From Candidatus Krumholzibacteriota bacterium (lineage in GTDB: Bacteria; Krumholzibacteriota; Krumholzibacteriia; JAJRXK01), in contig JAJRXK010000108.1 in the NCBI GenBank assembly GCA_024276305.1, forward strand, positions 8,172 through 72,171: 64,000 nt of DNA, given 5' to 3'. Position numbers and translations under genes: made by a program. Shown one piece after another: positions 1 through 11,098 of the stretch; the first letter of the stretch is position 1; every line of letters starts with the position of its first letter. Below the pieces are notes generated by a model. That model made no database searches and was not told the origin of the DNA. It worked only from the letters and a program-made list of their open reading frames with translations.

Positions 1-1461
1 CAACCAGTTGTTCGTCTGGCGCACGTCCTCGGCATCCATGTCTTCGCGCAGGACCACCAAGAGATCGAAGTGTCGCGCGGCCCTCGTGTTGACGCTCACT
101 CTCAGCAGCCGAAAGTTTCCTCGGGCCTGGACCCGCGAAATCCACAGACCCGCCGCCGCGATGTGTTGGACCCGGAATTCCTCTTCCTCGTGGGCGAGGA
201 TGACGGCCTGTTCGAGAAAGGAGGTCTCGCACACCAGGACTCGCATTCGCTCGCGGGTCGGGAGATCCACGTCGTCGTCGAAACGTGCGATGCGCTGCCA
301 CTGTTCGGCTTCGAGGTCCACGTGCTGGCGGTCGAGTCTCTCTTCGAACCACAGGAAGTTGCGGGCCAATTGGGTCTGGGCGAAGGCCGCGAGTTCCTCG
401 TCCTCCCCCAGCAGGATCCAACTCGCCAGCTCCGCCCGGACCGACTTGTAGTAGATCTCCTGGTGACGGACGAAGTCGCCCAAGAGGGTCAGGATGTGCT
501 GAATCTGTTGCCTCACCACCGGCCGCGCCGGCCATTCGATGCGTCGGCGGTATTCGGAGAGTCGACGACGCAGGGCGGTCAACCGACGGGGACCCACCGA
601 GGCCCGGGCCAGGATCTGGATGCTCTCCTCGTTGAGAAAACTCAGACCCGAGTCGAGGAAGTGCCCGAAACCGGGGTCCTCTTCGGCGGCTCGGCGATCG
701 AGGAGGAGAATCCGGTAGGCGAGACAGCGGAGCTCTTCACTCGGGTGACGCGCCAGAGTGGCGAGTCGGCTCCGGAGGACGGAGGCCAGGCGCTCGTCCA
801 ATTCGGGCAGGTCCCGCCCCAATTCCTTCAATTCGGTGCGGCAGCGTTGGTCCTCCCCCAGAAGCGCCTCCGCCAGGCGGCGGTGGAAGCGGCGCAGCTC
901 GGGAGGGAGGCCCGAGCCCAGATCATCGACTCCCCGATCCCTCCGGGGGGCGTGGTCATCGGGCAGCAGCAGGATCGAATCCCAGGGGTCGGATCGGACG
1001 TCCCATCCCGCACGACAGGGGACCGCAGCGAAGAGCTGGGCGTTGCCCAGCCAGAGCCGAGGTTGCCGGGCCAGCACCCCGAGGTCGACGACCCATGCTC
1101 CCTCTTCGGGGGGTCTTCTGCAGGAGTAGACGAAGTCGCCGATCTGCACTGCCCGGTCGGAGGTCCGGGAGATCCGGAGAAAACGGGCGTGCCGCAGATC
1201 CTTCAGGCCGTCGGGGAGCGCCACCCAATCGCTCTCGAGCGAACCCAGATCGCGGAGGATCCACCGGGGCAGTCTCACTCGGATCCCGTCGATCTCGTGC
1301 TCGAGCTGGGGACTGCGGTAGAGCTCGGCGATGAGCTCGGCGAAGTGCTCCTGGATCACTTTTCGCCGGTAGGTCTGCTTCGGCGTCAGCTCCCCGAGCT
1401 GCGGATCGAAGTCCCGGCGGAGCAGTGCGAAGTCGATGACTCTCTCGAAGGGGGCGAGAGA
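1..1461 (-). CDS. Continuation of acyl-CoA ligase reading frame past in-frame TAA (conserved ligase C-terminal motif, then >=430 aa uncharacterised extension); partial, runs off left edge
   Basis: Minus-strand frame immediately after the TAA at 1462-1464 reads SLAPFERVIDFALLRRDFDPQLGELTPKQTYRRKVIQEHFAELIAELY..., which matches the extreme C-terminus of ACSL/FadD-type ligases. The frame stays open with GC3-rich codons and protein-like composition to position 1. It is absent from the ORF track only because no stop lies inside the window. Confidence 0.6.
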
Positions 1462-3210
1462 TTAGTTCGCCGCGGCGATGATGCGTTGGAAGTACTCTCG
1501 TTCTCGGTCAGGAGTGCCGAGCTGCGCCAGCACCGCGTCCTCCCGGTCGGGAACGATCAACAGCACATTCCACGAACGGTGGTCTCCGACGAGGAAGGCC
1601 CGTCGCACTCCGGCCGTCTCCTCCAGGATGCGCTCGATCTTTCGAGGGGCGATGGTCTGGCCTCGGTCGTTCTTGTAGATGTCCTTGATGCGATCGACGA
1701 TCTGGAGCTGCCCGTTCTCCAATTCGCGGAAGAGATCGCCGGTTCGGAGCCAGGTCTTGGGAGAAGCTTCGGGGCGGGGCAGACAGACCAATCCCTCGGC
1801 GTCGGGATCGAGGTAGTCGGCGACATAGGGCCCTCCGATGCTCATCTCTCCCTGGGCATCGAGGACGAGGTCGATCCCCGGCAAGGGCCTTCCCACGCTG
1901 TCGTCGACATAGTCGCCCGCCGGACTCATGGTGATTCCCCCCGTCGCCTCGGTCATGCCGAAGCCGCTGCAGAGCTCCACTCCATGGCGGTGGAAGAAGC
2001 GGAAGATGCGGGGGTCGAGGTAGCCCGCGGCGGAGAGTCCCCACCGCAGGCCCGAGCCCACGACCTGCCGCAACGCGGCCTCCTTCTCCTCTCCCGACGA
2101 GACCCGGTCCATGGCCTCGAGGCAGCGGTCCCGCATCTGTTTCCACCGCAGCGGAATGCCGATCAGGCCGGTGGGTTCGACTTCGGGGAGCGCACTCAGA
2201 AAGGTCTCGGCCGAAGTGTTGCCCACGAAGACATAACGTCCTCTCCAGTAGAGCATGGCCAGGAGTTCGAGGAAGCGACCGAAGGTGTGGTAGAGCGGAA
2301 GGTAGCAGAGCAGGATCTCGTCGCGTCCGACCGCCGGAAGCGCCGCGGCCCGACAGAAGCGCTTGGTCACGAGGTGGAGGTCGGTGAAGGCCACTCCCTT
2401 GGGGCGGCCAGTGCTTCCGGAGGTGAACATCACCGTGGAAATGGCCCGGGGATCGACTTCGCGGCGATCGGCCAGGAGCGATTCGACCTGTTGAGGAGAG
2501 AGGGCCGCGGCCAGATCGTCCAGACGTTCGACATCCCCGGTTCGGACCCAGGCACTGTCCTCGAGAGAGAGGATTCCGAAGGTCGACTTCCCCTTGCGCC
2601 GCAGATCGCAGAGCCTCTGCTGCCGTTCCTCGGTATCGGTGACCACGAGGTCGATGTCGAGGCGGCGGAGAATCCAGTGGAGGTGGTCGAGGGGGGTGTG
2701 CACGCTCAGCGGGGTGACGACGATGCCCTCGGTGAGGCATCCCAAGTCGCAGCAGGCGCCGGCCACGGAGTTGTCCAGGTAGAGAGCCACCCGGGGGCGG
2801 TCTGAGGGTCCCTCCTCGTGCCGACCACGAGCGATGAAGGTGGCGGCATAGCGGCGGGCCCGTTGACGCAGGGGTCCCACCCCCCAGCTGCGCCGGCCGG
2901 TCGCGGTCGCTTCCACCAGGTAGACCCTCTCGGGATCTTCCTCCGCTCGTCGCTCCAAGAGGGTGCCCAAGGTGTAGCGACTCCGCTCGATGAGGCGGAT
3001 GCAGAGCGGCGCCCACACCTCATCCCGCGATTCGCGGTCGAGAGCCCCGAGGAAGTCGGGATCGCTGGTGAGGTCGAGAAAATCGTGGGCCAGGTCGCGG
3101 GGAAGGGACGCGGGCTCGGCGCGAGAGAAGGCGCGCAGGAGGGACCGCGCGAGGTCGCGGTCGCGACTCTGCGACCACTCGCTCAGTCGGCGTCGAAGGG
3201 CATCGTCCAT
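1462..3210 (-). CDS. Long-chain-fatty-acid--CoA ligase (AMP-forming), terminated prematurely by in-frame TAA
   Basis: 582-aa ORF with the AMP-binding signature TSGSTGRPKGV, a TGD motif (WLRTGDL) and IVDRIKDIYKNDRGQTIAPRKIE. It stops about 50 aa before the expected end of the family. Confidence 0.85.
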   Translation of the reverse strand: MDDALRRRLSEWSQSRDRDLARSLLRAFSRAEPASLPRDLAHDFLDLTSDPDFLGALDRESRDEVWAPLCIRLIERSRYTLGTLLERRAEEDPERVYLVEATATGRRSWGVGPLRQRARRYAATFIARGRHEEGPSDRPRVALYLDNSVAGACCDLGCLTEGIVVTPLSVHTPLDHLHWILRRLDIDLVVTDTEERQQRLCDLRRKGKSTFGILSLEDSAWVRTGDVERLDDLAAALSPQQVESLLADRREVDPRAISTVMFTSGSTGRPKGVAFTDLHLVTKRFCRAAALPAVGRDEILLCYLPLYHTFGRFLELLAMLYWRGRYVFVGNTSAETFLSALPEVEPTGLIGIPLRWKQMRDRCLEAMDRVSSGEEKEAALRQVVGSGLRWGLSAAGYLDPRIFRFFHRHGVELCSGFGMTEATGGITMSPAGDYVDDSVGRPLPGIDLVLDAQGEMSIGGPYVADYLDPDAEGLVCLPRPEASPKTWLRTGDLFRELENGQLQIVDRIKDIYKNDRGQTIAPRKIERILEETAGVRRAFLVGDHRSWNVLLIVPDREDAVLAQLGTPDREREYFQRIIAAAN

Positions 3211-3363
3211 CGTGACCTTGGCATTCCTCGCGGTGGGATCCGCCCCGTACTCTGCGGCAAATCGCAGGCCGCGTACACGCCAAAACTTCCCTTGCCAAGG
3301 GTCGAGGGCGGGTGGGAGATTGCTTCTCGCACCCCGTCTTGGACCTCACCGGAAGGAATCGAC

Positions 3364-3711
3364 ATGCGCAGTCTCCACGCCGCGTTCTTCCTGTCCTTCG
3401 TCGCCTCGACCGTGGTGCAGTGGAACGATCCGGATTGGTTGCCATGGATGGCGATCTACGCGGTGGCCGCCTGGGAGAGCGGACATGCGGTCTTCGGACG
3501 ACAGGAGCGAGCCCGGGCCCTGGTGGTGGCCTTGGTCGCCCTCGCCTGGCTCACGAAGATCGGACCCGAAGCTCTGCACGGAGATTGGGTCTTCAACGAG
3601 GTGCAGCGCGAGAGCGGAGGCCTGCTCCTGGTCAGTCTCTCGATGATGGCGGTCTGGCACAGTCCGGTCGAGGTCTCGGATCGACTCGCGGATCAGTCCT
3701 CGAGAAACTGA
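3364..3711 (+). CDS. Small hydrophobic membrane protein, hypothetical
   Basis: ATG preceded by GGAAGGA. 115 aa with 3-4 predicted TM segments (FFLSFVASTVV, ALVVALVALAWL, LLLVSLSMMAVW). Confidence 0.5.
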   Translation: MRSLHAAFFLSFVASTVVQWNDPDWLPWMAIYAVAAWESGHAVFGRQERARALVVALVALAWLTKIGPEALHGDWVFNEVQRESGGLLLVSLSMMAVWHSPVEVSDRLADQSSRN

Positions 3712-4388
3712 TCGAGGAGTTCCTCGAGGACTTCGTGGGACCGAGCAAAACGGTCTGGGCGAGCCAGGATCTCGGTGGGAGATTGGACGTAGGGGCCCTC
3801 TCCGTCGAGATCGTCGGGGCACATCTGGATCAACTGTTCCGCGCCTTCGGGAGTCATCTCCAAGTGGAATTGGATGCCCAGGACGCGGTCGCCCAGACGG
3901 AAGGCCTGGTGGGCACAGCCCCGGCTGCGGACGAGTCCGACCGCCTCTTCGGGGAGGGTGAAGGCCTCGCGGTGCCAATGGAAGACCTCTTCGCTGCGGA
4001 CCAGGATTCGGCCCAGAGTCTCCATGGCGTGACCTTCGGCGGCCTAGATGCCGAACCAGCCGATCTCGGCCTGTTCCGCGGGCCGAATCTCCGCTCCCAC
4101 GGCCTCCGCCAGAAGCTGGGCTCCGAGGCAGATGCCCAGGATGCGGGCCTGGGTTCGCAGGGCTTCGGTCAGGAACTCCTTTTCGGCGGCCAGCCAGGGG
4201 TGGTCCTCGAGGTCGTGGACGCTCATGGGCCCGCCCATCACCACCAGCAGATCGACCTCGTGGGGATCGGGAAAGACCGCGCTCTCCCAGCTCCGGGTGG
4301 CGGAGATCTGGGAGGCCCGGCCCGCGAGGAGGGGCCGGAGGTGACCCAGTCCTTCGAAGGGTGCGTGCTGGATCCAGTGAACGCGCAA
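3693..4388 (-). CDS. Class I glutamine amidotransferase (GATase1-like) interrupted by an in-frame TAG at 4044-4046
   Basis: The N-terminal fragment carries VMGGPMSVHD...ILGICLGAQLLA (catalytic Cys motif). The C-terminal fragment carries VFHWHREAF...GIQFHLEMTPE (His/Glu region). Both are in one frame, separated only by TAG. TTG start at 4388. Confidence 0.75.
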
Positions 4389-4566
4389 GCTTCTACCTCG
4401 GGCCCGAGAGTGCAGCGCCAGAATGCAACGGACCGGGGAGGGAAGTCCAGTCCGGAGAGGCCATCGGGGCCTTCCTTTCCTATCCTCTGGTCTGCAACCA
4501 TGGGGGTCCCCACATCCCTCTCCGGGAGGGGGATCCCGCAGTCCGGCTTCGCCCAGGAGGGTTCTG

Positions 4567-4767
4567 ATGCCACTCTATGACTATCACTGCCCCGACTGCG
4601 GTCATCGATTCGAAGAGTTTCGGCCGATGGCGGAACGCGACCACGCTCCCTGCCCGAAGTGCGGGAAAGAGGCGGACAAGCAGTTGTCCGGCTTCTTCAG
4701 TCCCCGTTCGACATCGTCCTCATCGACCCCCCCGCCCTGTGGCGGAGGTGGGCTCCCCGGGGGCTGA
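4567..4767 (+). CDS. FmdB-family zinc-ribbon protein
   Basis: MPLYDYHCPDCGHRFEEF...CPKCG, two CxxC pairs, 66 aa. Confidence 0.8.
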   Translation: MPLYDYHCPDCGHRFEEFRPMAERDHAPCPKCGKEADKQLSGFFSPRSTSSSSTPPPCGGGGLPGG

Positions 4768-4800
4768 GGCATCTGATCCCGCGCGCCCGGCGGGCGCGCA

Positions 4801-5427
4801 TCAAGTCGAGAGGCGGGGATTGAGAGTGTAGGTGCCGACCCACTGGGCTTCGGCCAGAACGTGCCCCTCCATGGCGTCGCGGACCTCCACCCCGCCGAAT
4901 TCCCCTCGAAGGTCCAGGGTGGGCAGATCGAGGGCGTAGAGGCAGAAATGATAGTGGTGGAGGATCGAGTCGTTCCAAGGGGGACAGGGTCCGTCATAGC
5001 CCCCGTAGCTGCCGCTCATCTCTGGATCGTCGGCGAACCACTGGGTGTAGTTGTTGATGCCCTGCACCCCGAATTCGCAACTCCCGGGTTCTTTCCCCCG
5101 AGGGGTCACCCCGTCGCTGGCCGCCGCTTCGGCGATTCGGCTCCGCTGGGGCGAGATGTCCACGAGAACCCAGTGAAAGAAATCGATCCGAGGTAGGTCG
5201 GGCGGAATCTCCCTCCCCTCCTGATTCACGTCTTCGGCCGAACTCGGGACGTCACGGTCGTAGCAGAGCAGGACCAGTGACTTCGTGGCGGAGGGGAGAT
5301 CATCCCAGCGAATCTCCGGATTGCGATTGGCACTCCACTTCACGTGGCTCTCCGGGTCGGGGGCCCCGAAGGCGAAGCGGGGGTCCATGGCCTCACCATT
5401 GGCGAAGGCCGGAATCTCCATGCGCAT
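4801..5427 (-). CDS. YbhB/YbcL-family phosphatidylethanolamine-binding (Raf kinase inhibitor-like) protein
   Basis: FFHWVLVDI and GYDGPCPP...HHYHFCLYALD motifs. ATG at 5427 is preceded by GAGAGAGGAG. The longer upstream ORF extension has no ribosome-binding site. Confidence 0.8.
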   Translation of the reverse strand: MRMEIPAFANGEAMDPRFAFGAPDPESHVKWSANRNPEIRWDDLPSATKSLVLLCYDRDVPSSAEDVNQEGREIPPDLPRIDFFHWVLVDISPQRSRIAEAAASDGVTPRGKEPGSCEFGVQGINNYTQWFADDPEMSGSYGGYDGPCPPWNDSILHHYHFCLYALDLPTLDLRGEFGGVEVRDAMEGHVLAEAQWVGTYTLNPRLST

Positions 5428-5646
5428 CGTTTTCTCCTCTCTCGCAGAAGCCCGATCGGGGCGGCATTGCAGACTCCATGGTCGCCCATTGAACCCCGCC
5501 TGGGGCCATTCCACAAGGGCGACACTTCTCCCCGCCTCCATGGACTTCCAGCCGCCGATCCTGCTACACTGGGGAGTCTCGTCTCGCCAGCAGCGCGCCC
5601 TGCGCGTTTGCGCACTTTTTCTGCCTTCAACCTCTGGAAGTCCACC

Positions 5647-7419
5647 GTGCGCTCCCGATTCATCTCCGCATTGAGCATCGCTTCACTCCTGCTTCTCTCA
5701 CTGCCCGTGATGGCGGGCACCCTCGCTCCGATCCTTCCCGACGGGGACTTCGCCGAGTGGTCCACCGTTCCCACCCTGGGGGTCGACCCCGCCGGCGATG
5801 GTGGCACCGTGGATTTCGGCACGGTCTGGGCCGCCAACGACCAGGATTGGTTCTACCTCCGCTTCGAGGTCGGGGGAGAGATCCAGCCCGACGAAGGGCA
5901 GGATGTGGTCCTGTACCTCGACACCGATCTGAACAGTTCCACCGGACAGTCCATCCAGGGGATCGGGGCGGATCTGGTGTGGGAGTTGGGGCTCCGCAAT
6001 GGGACCTTCTACACTCCCTCGGCCAAATCCGTCGGTCACGCCGACGTGGGCCTTCGCATCTCTCCCACGGTGAGCAGTACCGAATTCGAGATGGCCTTCG
6101 ACCGCAATGCGCTTCCCGCTTCGGGGAAGAGTCTCTTCCCCGGGAACTCGGTGCGCGTGGTCCTCGAGGATCGAAACGGAGGGGATACCGCACCCGATAG
6201 CGGAAGCTATCTCTACGACTTTGCGGCCGGAACCCTCACTCCGGCCACCCTCCCCACCAGTCGGGCGGGCGCGAGCCACCTCCGTATGGTCACCTGGAAC
6301 ATCCAGAGCGACGGCCTCTTCAGCGGAGGATCGACCGAGGCGGCCCAGCAGCGCATGTCCCAGGTGATGGATCCCGACATCTTCCTCTTCGAAGAGGTCT
6401 GGAACCACAACGCCAATGATGTGGCTGCGCAGGTCGAAGTCCTTCTTCCCAGCGGAGCGGGTCAGACCTGGAATGCGATCAAGATCGACAGCGGCAATGT
6501 CATCTGCACTCGGCTGCCGATCCTCAACAGTTGGGAGATCTATCCTGCGCACCGCCTCACCGCCGCTCTCCTCGACGCCAGCAGTAGCCTGGGCCAGGAC
6601 GTGCTGGTGATCGCCAATCACTGGCGTTGTTGCACCGCCGATGCCGAACGTCAGAACGAAGCCGACGCCCTGGTGGCCTTCTTGCGCGACGCTCGGACGC
6701 CGGGCGGAGTCATCGACCTGGCCCCCAACACCCCGGTGATCATCGGGGGAGACTTCAATCTGGTGGGGTGGGCGGCCCAACTCACGACCGCCATCACCGG
6801 CAACATCGCCGACAATGGAACCTGGGGTCCGGACAGTCCTCCCGACTGGGATGGATCCACTCTGGACGTGGTGCCGGCCCGACATGTGGACGCACGGGAG
6901 TCCTATACCTGGCGGCGGGACAGCAGCTCCTTCTACGCCGGGCTCCTCGATTGGATGTTCTACACCGCGAGTGCCGTGGAATTGGGCAATCACTACGTTC
7001 TCGAGACGCGGACGATGAAGTCCAGCACCCTCGGTGCGCTGGGTTTGAATGCCGATGACACCATCGTCGCCAGCGACCATGCGCCCCGGGTCGCGGACTT
7101 CTTCATCGCCCAGAGCACCGGAGCCGATCCCACGCCTCGGGCCCCGCATCTGGGCTTGGAGATCTATCCGAATCCGGCCAATCCCCGGGCTCGCATCCGC
7201 TTCGAACTCGGACAGAGCTCGGAAGTGGAATTGAGCATCTACGATGCCGCGGGCCGCTTCGTACGGACTCTCCACCAGGGCGCCCTCGGAGTCGGGACTC
7301 ATGAATACGTGTGGGACGGCACCGATGCCGCCGGCCGTGAAGTCGCTTCCGGAGTCTACTTCGTCCAGGTGCGTGGAGATCGGGCCCATCAGACCAAGTC
7401 GCTGGCGCTGGTGCGCTGA
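5647..7419 (+). CDS. Secreted endonuclease/exonuclease/phosphatase (EEP) family protein with T9SS-type C-terminal sorting domain
   Basis: Signal peptide FISALSIASLLLLSLPVMAG after a GTG start. EEP core (MVTWNIQSD..., VIGGDFN, ASDHAP). Last ~85 aa LEIYPNPANP...VELSIYDAAGR...ASGVYFVQV match the Por-secretion/FlgD-Ig-like C-terminal domain. Confidence 0.75.
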   Translation: MRSRFISALSIASLLLLSLPVMAGTLAPILPDGDFAEWSTVPTLGVDPAGDGGTVDFGTVWAANDQDWFYLRFEVGGEIQPDEGQDVVLYLDTDLNSSTGQSIQGIGADLVWELGLRNGTFYTPSAKSVGHADVGLRISPTVSSTEFEMAFDRNALPASGKSLFPGNSVRVVLEDRNGGDTAPDSGSYLYDFAAGTLTPATLPTSRAGASHLRMVTWNIQSDGLFSGGSTEAAQQRMSQVMDPDIFLFEEVWNHNANDVAAQVEVLLPSGAGQTWNAIKIDSGNVICTRLPILNSWEIYPAHRLTAALLDASSSLGQDVLVIANHWRCCTADAERQNEADALVAFLRDARTPGGVIDLAPNTPVIIGGDFNLVGWAAQLTTAITGNIADNGTWGPDSPPDWDGSTLDVVPARHVDARESYTWRRDSSSFYAGLLDWMFYTASAVELGNHYVLETRTMKSSTLGALGLNADDTIVASDHAPRVADFFIAQSTGADPTPRAPHLGLEIYPNPANPRARIRFELGQSSEVELSIYDAAGRFVRTLHQGALGVGTHEYVWDGTDAAGREVASGVYFVQVRGDRAHQTKSLALVR

Positions 7420-8595: not shown

Positions 8596-10677
8596 ATGCA
8601 TCGACGCCTACTCTCCGTCGTCGTTCTCCTGCTGCTGCCGGGCGTGGCCGCGGCCGATTCTCACCCCTTCGACGTGCACGACCTGCTGGCGATGCAGCGG
8701 GTGTCTGCGATGGCCGTGTCACCGGATGCTTCCCGGGTGGTGTACACGCTGCGCACCACGGACTTGGAAGCGGACCGGGGAAGGACCGATCTCTGGATGG
8801 TCGATGTGGAGAGTGGCCGGACTCGTCAGCTCACCTCGCATCCGGCCTCGGACGGCAGCGCCACCTTCGCGAGGGACGGCAAGAGCCTCTACTTCCTCTC
8901 TTCGCGGTCGGGGACTTCGCAGGTGTGGTGGCTTTCGCTCGAAGGCGGAGAGGCCCTTCCGGTGACCGACCTCCCCCTCGACGTGGGCACCTTCCGAATC
9001 TCTCGGGACGGCACCCGGATCGCGGTCAGCCTGGAGGTCTTCGTCGATGCGGCCACCCTCGAGGAAACGGTCGACCGTCTCGGCGCCGGCAGTGAGGACG
9101 CGGGAATCGTCTACGACTCGATCTTCGTTCGCCACTGGGACCAGTGGAAGGACGGACGCCGCCGCCACCTCTTCGTCGCGCCCCTGCGCGGCCGTGAGGT
9201 GGTCGGGGATTTCGTGGACATCATGCCGGGAATGGATGCCGATTGCCCCAACCAGCCCTTCGGCGGGAGGAGCGATTACACCTTCACTCCCGAAGGAGAC
9301 CGGCTGGTGTTCTCGGCCCGGGAGGTGGGAGCTTCCGAGGCCTGGAGCACGGATTTCGACCTCTATCTCGGGTGGTCCGACGGCGAGAAGGCACCCCAGT
9401 GCCTCACCTCCGAGAACGAAGCCTGGGATGCCCATCCGGTCTTCTCCCCCGACGGATCCCGCTTGGCCTACCTGGCCATGCGAGAGCCGGGCTACGAGGC
9501 GGATCGCTATCGTGTCGTCCTGCGCTCGTGGTCGGGGGTCGACCATGAATTCGGGGAGGCAGAGTGGGTGACCGAGGAGTGGGATCGTTCTCCCTCTTCT
9601 CTGAGCTGGGCCCCCGATGGGGGAAGTCTCTTGGCCCATGCCTCCAATCTGGGACGTCGTAGCCTCTTCCGCATCGATCTGGCCAAGGGAGGGGCCACGG
9701 AGTTGGTGGCGGGGGGGAGCGTCGCCGCCGAAGCGGAGGTCGGTGACAAGTTGTTCTATGCGGTGAGCGGTTTCGGGGGGCCCACCGAGCTCTACCACGC
9801 CCGCCGAGATGGTTCGCGGGCCGAGCGGCTCACCCACGTCAACGACGCGCGGGTGGCCGAGGCGGAGATGGGAACCTCCGAGCAATTCCACTTCGTGGGA
9901 GCCAACGGCGATACCGTCTACGGTTGGTTGGTGCGTCCGGTACCTTTCGACCCGGCCCACAAAGCCCCGGTGGCCTTTCTCATCCACGGCGGTCCTCAGG
10001 GGAGCTTCGGCACCAACTTCCACTATCGATGGAATCCTCAGGTCTACGCCGGTCGGGGCTATGCGGTGGTCATGATCGACTTTCACGGTTCGTCCGGCTA
10101 CGGCGAGGACTTCCAGAATGCCATCCAGAAGAATTGGGGTGGATGGCCCCTCGAAGATCTGCAGAAGGGGCTGGCCTACGTCCTCGAGCAGAACCCCTGG
10201 ATGGATGGCGACCGGGTGGCGGCCCTGGGGGCGAGCTACGGCGGCTACATGATCAACTGGATCGCCGGAAACTGGCCCGATCGCTTCACTTGTTTGGTCA
10301 ACCACGACGGCCTCTTCGACACCCGAGCCGGATACTATGCCACTGAGGAGTTGTGGTTCCCCGAGCGGGACTTCGGGGGAACCCCCTGGGCTCGTCCCGA
10401 ATTCTACGAGAAATGGAATCCGGCCAACTTCGTGGGCAACTGGAGGACTCCGATGCTGGTGGTTCATGGTGGCCGGGACTACCGGGTCCCTCTGTTCCAT
10501 GGCTTGGCGGCCTTCAACGCTCTGCAGCGACGGGGAATCGAGAGCCGACTGCTCTACTTTCCGAAGGAGAACCACTGGGTGCTACGACCGCAGAACAGCA
10601 TCCAGTGGCACGAGGAAGTGCTCGACTGGTTGGATCGATTCAACCAGGGCGAGGCGCAGCCGGCCTCCACTCGTTGA
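8596..10677 (+). CDS. S9-family serine peptidase (prolyl oligopeptidase / acylaminoacyl-peptidase-like)
   Basis: Signal peptide. Beta-propeller-like N-terminal half. C-terminal hydrolase domain with GASYGGY nucleophile elbow, plus HGGRD and His near the C-terminus. Confidence 0.85.
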   Translation: MHRRLLSVVVLLLLPGVAAADSHPFDVHDLLAMQRVSAMAVSPDASRVVYTLRTTDLEADRGRTDLWMVDVESGRTRQLTSHPASDGSATFARDGKSLYFLSSRSGTSQVWWLSLEGGEALPVTDLPLDVGTFRISRDGTRIAVSLEVFVDAATLEETVDRLGAGSEDAGIVYDSIFVRHWDQWKDGRRRHLFVAPLRGREVVGDFVDIMPGMDADCPNQPFGGRSDYTFTPEGDRLVFSAREVGASEAWSTDFDLYLGWSDGEKAPQCLTSENEAWDAHPVFSPDGSRLAYLAMREPGYEADRYRVVLRSWSGVDHEFGEAEWVTEEWDRSPSSLSWAPDGGSLLAHASNLGRRSLFRIDLAKGGATELVAGGSVAAEAEVGDKLFYAVSGFGGPTELYHARRDGSRAERLTHVNDARVAEAEMGTSEQFHFVGANGDTVYGWLVRPVPFDPAHKAPVAFLIHGGPQGSFGTNFHYRWNPQVYAGRGYAVVMIDFHGSSGYGEDFQNAIQKNWGGWPLEDLQKGLAYVLEQNPWMDGDRVAALGASYGGYMINWIAGNWPDRFTCLVNHDGLFDTRAGYYATEELWFPERDFGGTPWARPEFYEKWNPANFVGNWRTPMLVVHGGRDYRVPLFHGLAAFNALQRRGIESRLLYFPKENHWVLRPQNSIQWHEEVLDWLDRFNQGEAQPASTR

Positions 10678-10678
10678 G

Positions 10679-11098
10679 ATGAGACAGGCTTCGACCACCT
10701 TTTGCATCGGCACTCCGGGACCGGGAACGATCGAGTTCACGGACCGGGTGCGCCAGTGGCTCGAGCAGGAGTCGGTGGTGGAGGGACTGTTGACCCTCCA
10801 CATTCGTCACACCTCGGCGTCGCTCTTGTTGCAGGAGAATGCCGACCCTCAGGTGCAGCGAGATCTCGAGCGATTCTTTCGGCGCTTGGTCCCCCCGGGG
10901 GATCCCCTCTTCGAACACGTGGCCGAGGGTCCCGACGACATGCCGGCCCATGTGCGTTGCGCTCTCACCACCACCCAACTCTCGATCCCGGTGGTCAGGA
11001 GTCGTATGGTGTTGGGGACTTGGCAGGGGATCTTCCTCTTCGAACATCGCGACCATCCCCATCGGCGGGAGGTCGCAGCCCACTTTCTGGGAGAGTAA
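10679..11098 (+). CDS. yjbQ: YjbQ/UPF0047-family protein (secondary thiamine-phosphate synthase-like)
   Basis: LLTLHIRHTSASLLLQENADP...DDMPAHV...GTWQGIFLFEHR. Start is 1 nt after the upstream stop (TGAgATG). Confidence 0.8.
   Translation: MRQASTTFCIGTPGPGTIEFTDRVRQWLEQESVVEGLLTLHIRHTSASLLLQENADPQVQRDLERFFRRLVPPGDPLFEHVAEGPDDMPAHVRCALTTTQLSIPVVRSRMVLGTWQGIFLFEHRDHPHRREVAAHFLGE

Follow-up and report, generated by a model that had tools for sequence, protein, structure and literature searches.

The interrupted gene and its reading frame

On the minus strand, the first 3,210 bases of the window (the entire 64-kb stretch of DNA that was analyzed) translate as a run of 1,070 codons, from 3210 to 1, in which a TAA is the sole stop (Table 1). 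The 582-aa product called upstream from this stop is a 100% match to a database protein (P0001), which is a singleton in the cluster look-up. The PF00501 AMP-binding profile matches residues 85-463 of this product (profile positions 1-379 of 384; E 5.9e-50), as do the long-chain-fatty-acid--CoA ligase models of NCBIfam, and the core motifs of the ligase found in the translation (the P-loop-like TSGSTGRPKG, GFGMTE, RTGD, and the hinge motif DRIKDIYKN) are nearly invariant across the protein family described below.

The 48 codons that follow the TAA (1461→1318) encode SLAPFERVIDFALLRRDFDPQLGELTPKQTYRRKVIQEHFAELIAELY, which is the usual terminus of this type of ligase, and a further 439 codons (1317→1) remain open up to the edge of the window. 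A preliminary description of this DNA had placed the end of the ligase at …AELIAELY, and had reported a frame open for ~440 codons (at least 430 aa) beyond …ELY, and both points hold. When the stop is masked, the translation can be aligned, …AELIAELY included, as far as the final residue of 6oz1, a solved carboxylic-acid-reductase (CAR) adenylation domain, and also with the members of the family.

The protein-like, GC3-rich character originally attributed to the extension is equally well founded. The GC content at the three codon positions is 0.70/0.48/0.82 in the ligase, 0.69/0.37/0.87 in the tail, and 0.74/0.43/0.81 in the extension, a pattern (GC3 ~0.8, GC2 ~0.4-0.5) that is alike on either side of the TAA and continuous across it. 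At the local base composition, the probability of 487 codons remaining free of stops by chance is ~4e-6, and the homology of the extension, with E values down to 1e-95 in BLASTP and 2.8e-112 in HMMER, settles the question of its coding status. The ORF of 911 aa on the plus strand (70..2805) is an antisense shadow of the ligase-extension gene. A single large gene (~4.6 kb) begins in positions 1-3210 of the window, which cover its first ~1,070 codons. The annotation should be corrected as such, given that the call of a 582-aa “ligase” is truncated, and that the unannotated 1.3 kb represents the continuation of the same gene.

Table 1. Features of the ligase-extension gene in window coordinates; the limits of the extension subdomains follow the AlphaFold2 model.
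Feature	Position	Strand	Basis or description
Called ligase ORF	1462..3210	-	582 aa, ends at the TAA
N-terminal 582 codons of the AMP-forming acyl-CoA synthetase	1465..3210	-	ORF, PF00501, NCBIfam
In-frame TAA in the ligase C-terminal subdomain	1462..1464	-	Only stop in 1,070 codons
Last 48 ligase residues, with GELTPKQTYRRKVI, to …AELIAELY	1318..1461	-	Aligned to 22 family members and 6oz1
Extension subdomain 1, β-rich	967..1305	-	Model residues 1-113; strands E2-5 to E108-113
Variable linker	904..966	-	Model residues 114-134; pLDDT dips to 63; variable columns with indels
Extension subdomain 2, all-helical, α-solenoid-like (ARM/HEAT-like)	286..903	-	Model residues 135-340; H135-149 to H333-339
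Extension subdomain 3, start of an α/β domain	1..285	-	Model residues 341-435; cut by the window edge

The ligase and the consequences of the stop

In the homologues, the stretch equivalent to the 48 residues that follow the TAA is covered by PF23562 (AMP-binding_C_3), a profile that is marginal in the 582-aa product (E 0.059), in comparison with values of 1e-8 to 1e-12 in the intact relatives. In the ANL enzymes, the last C-terminal motif provides the lysine required for adenylation. Here, the Lys-containing last motif, GELTPKQTYRRKVI (GELTPKGSFRRKxI in the relatives), is present and conserved, but lies 3' of the TAA, and the core and the complete C-terminal subdomain are not found on one polypeptide. 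As this motif falls after the stop, the 582-aa product is probably inactive. The TAA would split the C-terminal subdomain of the ligase, parting the catalytic core from the Lys motif and everything downstream, which would make the gene a pseudogene of recent origin, unless the stop is due to an error in the consensus.

Among the closest known systems are the long-chain acyl-CoA synthetases of the COG1022/FAA1 type and the CAR adenylation domains (6oz1, 5mso), to the end of which the ligase of the window aligns, including the 48 residues beyond the TAA. These enzymes nevertheless stop at or near …LY, or bear carrier-protein and reductase domains, and none has an extension of the type found here.

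Structure and conservation of the extension

The extension was modeled with AlphaFold2 as a sequence of 435 residues, using an alignment of 56 sequences, which resulted in a pLDDT of 92.2 and a pTM of 0.89, in contrast with a single-sequence run that was unusable (pLDDT 38). The model has three subdomains, with a variable linker separating the first and second (Table 1). The β-rich subdomain 1 has the conserved motifs IPRWxxRDLGxLE, IGDxxY, IDLG, ARQPRLWxGN, and GWD, and the invariant columns P13, W15, D19, L20, E24, G56, D57, Y60, D74, P82, L84, W85, N88, and W101, and its copy in the window carries an insertion of six residues relative to the relatives. The motifs of subdomain 2 are RRRLEALARHP..VRCLAYRILLL, GLxFLxEESI, LRxRLxxYR, and VRAELASWxL, with R180, R193, A196, Y197, F216, F223, L224, R248, Y252, R253, E292, and W296 being invariant. 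In subdomain 3, the model contains the strands E382-392, E399-407, and E412-419 and the helix H426-434, and the conserved sequence is GIWISR…YRVSVNT..GKHYDL.

The profile searches and the structure prediction proposed in the preliminary description were conducted, and neither they nor the fold searches revealed any known family, P-loop, or HX4D motif, which bears out the original impression that the extension has no recognizable motif. The extension has no match in Pfam or NCBIfam, and the scan of 14 individual members against Pfam at E ≤ 10 was also negative, except for a single HEAT_2 match with an E of 0.036. The families of the HX4D acyltransferases and the Walker A type had no Pfam or NCBIfam match at E ≤ 1-10, and no invariant His is found in the extension. 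The sequence-profile search of the PDB returned nothing meaningful, and Foldseek, queried with the entire three-domain model, found no match at E ≤ 0.001 among 350,542 PDB chains. The search of the viral BFVD library for similar folds produced no significant match.

The best of the non-significant Foldseek matches to the whole model were importin-α, β-catenin, and designed repeat proteins (E 0.05-0.3, TM 0.2-0.3). The helices of residues 135-340 are predicted to stack in a solenoid-like manner, as in the ARM/HEAT α-solenoids such as importin-α and β-catenin, and the HP..VR..AYR.LLL motif of this subdomain looks HEAT-like. Subdomain 2 differs from the ARM/HEAT proteins in the lack of a significant profile match, given that HEAT_2 was recovered in only one of the 14 members (at the E value given above) and that no PDB profile matched.

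The invariant residues of the extension are mostly W, P, G, L, F, Y, and A, together with Arg, Asp, Glu, and Asn, and no invariant His, Cys, Ser, or Lys was found in the alignment. From this absence of invariant residues of the catalytic type, we infer a non-catalytic role for the extension, as a module for scaffolding, recognition, or regulation. The extension might, instead, be an enzyme or a ligand-sensing domain in its own right, such as a degenerate kinase-like or nucleotide-binding module that runs past the window, rather than a passive scaffold. A number of charged or polar residues are indeed conserved (D19, E24, D57, D74, N88, D102, R180, R193, R248, R253, and E292), and the YRVSVNT..GKHYDL sequence leads into a conserved SPxNVxVPExD … ILSLxGW, which may loosely recall a kinase catalytic loop. 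However, neither the extension nor this downstream block matches any Pfam, NCBIfam, or PDB sequence, and the lack of a significant fold match and of the four invariant residue types named above makes an enzymatic or ligand-sensing role unlikely.

The protein family and its distribution

A homologue search with the ligase and the first 100 residues of the extension recovered 363 proteins, many of them 1,000-1,290 aa in length, often flagged as “partial”, and labeled “AMP-binding protein”. In one source, the label of one of these proteins (P0065) is [quoted passage not shown]. When the extension alone was compared with these homologues by BLASTP, more than 30 proteins aligned over residues 1-435, with identities of 25-44% and E values down to 1e-95, and the alignments always begin directly after the end of the ligase. 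An HMMER scan, run exhaustively on 1.84 billion representatives (E ≤ 0.001), returned 175 clusters, defined at 50% identity, and the best match to the extension had 50% identity and an E of 2.8e-112. The word-indexed searches, with either the extension alone or an alignment of 14 extension sequences, had found no match, which was a false negative of the selection of candidates.

Ligase-plus-extension orthologues, which the preliminary description had suggested looking for in related genomes, were thus found in abundance. In the scan of one genome per species (the GTDB representatives), the extension region was present in 171 genomes, with a best identity of 42-43%. The domain is not, then, the novelty that it was first supposed to be, given that 175 clusters and 171 genomes already carry the region, mostly under the name “AMP-binding protein”. 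Eighty loci were kept, almost all of them from metagenome-assembled genomes, and these represent the Zixibacteria, Eisenbacteria, Krumholzibacteria, Gemmatimonadota, Fibrobacterota, Bacteroidota, Ignavibacteria/Kapaibacteria, and Acidobacteriota. The family is found in the phyla of the FCB group and in the Acidobacteriota, which represents at least seven groups at the level of the phylum.

Most of the related loci are single ORFs of ~1,535-1,640 codons, with 466-487 codons following the extension, and in the complete proteins of 1,500-1,600 aa, the extension region is always located at ~640-1065. The extension is not the end of the protein, as the relatives continue for ~470 residues beyond it, ending in a GNAT domain. 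In all six of the complete members scanned, PF00501 and PF23562 are found in the N-terminal part and the GNAT profile PF00583 at ~1,430-1,520, and the GNAT domain was present in 20 of the 20 loci scanned. The profile of the downstream part matches the Tetrahymena GCN5 in the PDB, at 1.5e-7, and nothing else, and the RGxG acyl-CoA motif is intact in the GNAT of the family. The layout of the family (~1,530-1,600 aa), as read from these sequences, is an AMP-forming acyl-CoA synthetase followed by the ~430-aa region, ~300 aa of unknown sequence, and a GNAT of the Gcn5 type.

The members of the family (P0121, P0122, and P0124, for example) are collinear with all of the 1,070 visible residues of the window gene. 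The identity between the window gene and the family members is 45-50% in the ligase and up to 44-50% in the extension, which lies directly after …LY in both cases, and all the invariant residues are shared. The window gene differs from the members in its TAA, which is present in no relative, and its identity to any member in the databases is at most ~50%. Its GNAT end would lie beyond base 1, and this part of the layout is read from the relatives. The window gene is most probably (with a probability of around 0.8) a member of this family, encoding a protein of ~1,540 residues formed by a synthetase, a region with β, α-solenoid-like, and α/β parts, and a GNAT, which is broken by one TAA.

In a minority of the relatives, the protein is split in a variable linker, located some 180-200 residues after the extension. 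At one of these loci (L053), for example, the stop shares bases with both an AAGGAG Shine-Dalgarno sequence and a GTG restart. These natural splits show that the architecture is modular and that its halves can work as separate polypeptides. The stop in the window is of a different kind, given that it is located within a folded subdomain of the ligase and has no restart signal.

No partner gene is conserved across phyla in the related loci, and the only signal from the neighborhood is a synteny with genes of the TCA cycle, mostly in the loci of the Bacteroidota. In the Bacteroidales loci, the gene is located between a divergent aconitase gene and an isocitrate dehydrogenase gene on the same strand, which begins only 33 nt downstream in one case (L028), while citrate synthase is found nearby in 12 loci. 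Given this lack of conservation of the neighborhood across phyla, the genomic context provides little support for any particular role. In the window itself, a protein with a T9SS sorting domain is encoded at 5344-7419, as would be expected of DNA from the FCB group.

The search of the literature for a fusion of an AMP-forming synthetase with a GNAT found none, recovering only systems of the Pat and AcuA types. The family is already public in hundreds of copies under generic names, yet is uncharacterized, and the window gene is a divergent (≤50% identity) and damaged member.

Origin of the in-frame TAA

In the alignment of 22 family members, the column occupied by the TAA is mostly Q (…ANQ.LAPYERV…), with K, E, R, P, A, or S in the remaining members, and its flanks are strongly conserved. 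An upstream stop was reached in 64 of the 80 related loci, and in all 64, at least 634 codons are open ahead of the extension, in one frame, which means that no stop is present at the junction between the ligase and the extension. The preliminary description had left open whether the extension is a fused domain or a separate gene, and these loci uphold the former and not the latter. The single ORF that spans the ligase and the extension in the family is not found in the window gene. As the junction is intact in the 64 loci and the homologues mostly have a Gln at this position, the TAA is, by comparison with these sequences, a nonsense mutation or a consensus error that is specific to the window sequence, and the original codon was most likely a Gln codon. 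On this evidence, the TAA is neither a site for read-through nor of biological importance. The extension in the window retains all 29 of the family-invariant residues, and no further stop or frameshift is found in the 487 codons, which indicates that the lesion is either recent or an artefact.

A second interrupted gene is found only 2.6 kb from the TAA. This gene encodes a class-I glutamine amidotransferase (GATase), with an in-frame TAG at 4044-4046, over which PF00117 and the PDB homologues align without a break, and when the whole window was screened for stops with coding-like sequence on both sides, only these two broken genes were recovered. The presence of two nonsense codons so close together points to either genome decay or local problems in the consensus or the strains, and the lesion may reflect the quality of the assembly or the decay of the genome more than the ligase-extension gene itself. 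The chances are slightly below even that the TAA is only an error of assembly or consensus, or a minority strain variant, in which case the true codon would be a sense codon (probably CAA, Gln) and the protein of ~1,540 aa would be intact. The lack of any decay after the stop is consistent with this, as is the single C→T change that turns CAA, which encodes the commonest residue of the column, into TAA, and the nearby TAG would also fit local problems of the consensus. Genuine recent nonsense mutations would look identical, however, and the screen, with just two interrupted genes in 64 kb, gave no other sign of poor quality. The metagenome searches found no match, either to the exact pattern across the stop or in the peptide scan.

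The possibility that the TAA is decoded, by programmed read-through, suppression, or reassignment, with both a short ligase and a long fusion being made, would be compatible with the open and conserved frame past the stop and with the in-frame TAG in the second gene. Gln is the usual outcome of the reassignment of TAA or TAG, or of near-cognate read-through, and it is also the main residue in the homologous column. Nevertheless, no stop is found at the junction in any of the loci that reach the upstream stop, and a “582-aa isoform” that lacks the last motif of the ligase would be odd. At 11096, moreover, the UPF0047 domain terminated by a TAA is complete (profile positions 2-116 of 117), and a separate Haem_bd gene comes after this stop in the same frame, so the TAA is a normal terminator here. 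No tRNA was found in the 64-kb window, and no Rfam element in positions 1-6000, a range that includes the TAA. A genome-wide recoding of TAA or TAG was rejected, given that only two genes are interrupted in 64 kb and that TAA terminates normally, and programmed read-through was also discarded, considering the lack of a stop at this site in the relatives and the termination at 11096; decoding of any kind is highly improbable.

Hardly more credible is the idea that the region following the TAA is an independent gene, which begins at an internal GTG, TTG, or ATG and encodes a stand-alone protein. In-frame GTG and TTG codons do exist after the TAA, contrary to the earlier assertion that a separate gene would have no start codon, and a few relatives are truly split into two ORFs, but at the different, variable linker described above (in L053, for example). 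The first of these codons is a GTG (1357-1359) within the ligase tail, no Shine-Dalgarno-like sequence precedes it or the other candidate starts, and the first in-frame ATG is found only at codon 406. The TAA is, in addition, followed by 48 residues that form the ligase's own C-terminal motif and helix, and in all the relatives, a single polypeptide contains both the ligase and the extension. The reading of a single gene broken by a lesion specific to the window sequence is therefore maintained.

Putative function and comparison with known systems

The synthetase of the family is apparently competent for the formation of acyl-CoA, and the ~730 residues located between the synthetase and the GNAT look well folded and non-catalytic. 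In the intact proteins, the extension would tether the GNAT to the synthetase on one chain, where the acyl-CoA formed by the N-terminal synthetase would be used by the C-terminal GNAT, which might then N-acylate either a protein lysine, possibly one of the synthetase itself, or a small amine.

Pat/YfiQ also combines a synthetase-like domain with a C-terminal GNAT, although the large domain of class Iα is a homologue of the NDP-forming acyl-CoA synthetases (PMC6456759). The family found here resembles these type I lysine acetyltransferases of class Iα (Pat/YfiQ/PatZ) in being large and multidomain, with a synthetase-type part and a C-terminal GNAT (PMC6456759), and its GNAT would be of the Gcn5 protein-acetyltransferase type, based on its likeness to GCN5. 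It does not belong to the Pat class, given that the large domain of Pat is NDP-forming, whereas the synthetase here is of the PF00501 type, an AMP-forming ANL enzyme with all of its visible motifs intact. Pat is a protein of ~890 aa, and contains nothing that resembles the ~730-residue middle of this family. No sequence relationship between the family and Pat was found outside the GNAT domain.

[quoted passage not shown] As described there, this is a pairing of an AMP-forming synthetase with a GNAT able to acylate it, and it offers a model for what a covalent fusion might do. AcsA and AcuA differ from the family in being two separate small proteins without linker domains, with acetate as the substrate, while the self-acylation of the family is putative. 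Both Pat/YfiQ and AcsA-AcuA would be precedents by analogy only, for how such a protein might work.

A speculative proposal, which is somewhat unlikely to hold as a whole, is that the family represents an undescribed class of bacterial acyltransferases, in which the synthetase would make the donor and the GNAT on the same chain would consume it, while the ~730-residue middle, with its three subdomains of new fold, would serve either to choose the acceptor or to gate the reaction. The location of the gene between the aconitase and isocitrate dehydrogenase genes in the Bacteroidales suggests a possible role of the protein in tuning the citrate/acetyl-CoA node through the acylation of proteins.

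To our knowledge, an NDP-forming synthetase-like domain is common to all the large bacterial lysine acetyltransferases described so far. If an AMP-forming counterpart does make its own acyl donor, it would represent a new coupling of acyl activation to acyl transfer. The ~730 residues that link the two enzymes are predicted to fold with high confidence, yet no Pfam family, solved structure, or literature was found for them. Cultivable Bacteroidota, relatives of the Prolixibacteraceae/Draconibacterium, appear to carry the family, which would make it approachable experimentally.

The family beyond the extension

In complete family members, the extension is joined to the GNAT domain by approximately 300 conserved residues (~1065-1370; L001:11291-12200 in one relative), which lie outside the window. 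This region has no match in Pfam or the PDB, and contains the motifs PRFG..RP.LGA, SPxNVxVPExD, ILSLxGW, and AIxRYxxWxxxNP, of which SPxNVxVPExD may be likened, loosely, to a kinase catalytic loop without its Asp. A word-indexed protein search with the extension itself, either as a single sequence or as an alignment, recovered no matches. This null result should not be taken as evidence of orphan status, because many protein entries in the same database share 35-44% identity with the extension over 430 residues.

Genomic neighborhoods

In the Bacteroidales/Bacteroidota relatives, the gene of ~1,540 aa lies between a divergent aconitase gene upstream and an isocitrate dehydrogenase gene downstream on the same strand (a gap of 33 nt at locus L028). 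Citrate synthase lies still farther upstream than aconitase. This synteny with TCA-cycle genes, mainly a feature of Bacteroidota loci, was recorded at L028, L041, L056, L057, L076, and L079, and also at L009, L016, L018, L020, L033, L034, L053, L058, and L067. In the window, the TMEM220-like, Zn-ribbon_8, and PEBP-family proteins are the ligase's immediate neighbors and have no evident functional tie to the ligase gene. The T9SS sorting domain of the secreted protein fits a source organism of the FCB group.

Features of the window and split-site stops in family members at other loci
Feature	Position	Strand	Remarks
TMEM220-like small membrane protein	3364-3711	(+)	Neighbor of ligase gene
Class-I glutamine amidotransferase	3693-4388	(-)	In-frame TAG, 4044-4046
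Zn-ribbon_8 protein	4567-4767	(+)	Neighbor of ligase gene
PEBP-family protein	4801-5541	(-)	Neighbor of ligase gene
Secreted endonuclease/exonuclease/phosphatase-family protein	5344-7419	(+)	FlgD-Ig and Por_Secre_tail (T9SS sorting) domains
UPF0047 (YjbQ-like), complete	~10250-11098	(+)	Ended by TAA, 11096-11098
Haem_bd (PF14376)	11099-~11600	(+)	Same frame as UPF0047
Split-site stop, locus L053	4232-4234		
Split-site stop, locus L080	5580-5582		

Stop codons and split members

The TAA codon is a working terminator in this genome, as shown by the UPF0047 gene, which it ends, with the Haem_bd gene following at once. The amidotransferase is a second gene with a nonsense interruption, at most 2.6 kb from the ligase TAA; its TAG is crossed without a break by the PF00117 match (residues 43-183), and the PDB homologues 9xfs, 3m3p, and 3l7n also align straight across it.

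Some family members stop ~170-200 residues past the extension, inside a variable linker, and in-frame homology resumes beyond the TAA. The database proteins P0026, P0031, P0035, P0040, P0045, P0047, P0066, and P0067 end in this linker, and a frameshift replaces the stop at locus L031 (~5090-5140). At L053, the stop is overlapped by an AAGGAG Shine-Dalgarno sequence and followed by GTG, an arrangement suggestive of a natural fission of the family protein into two ORFs.
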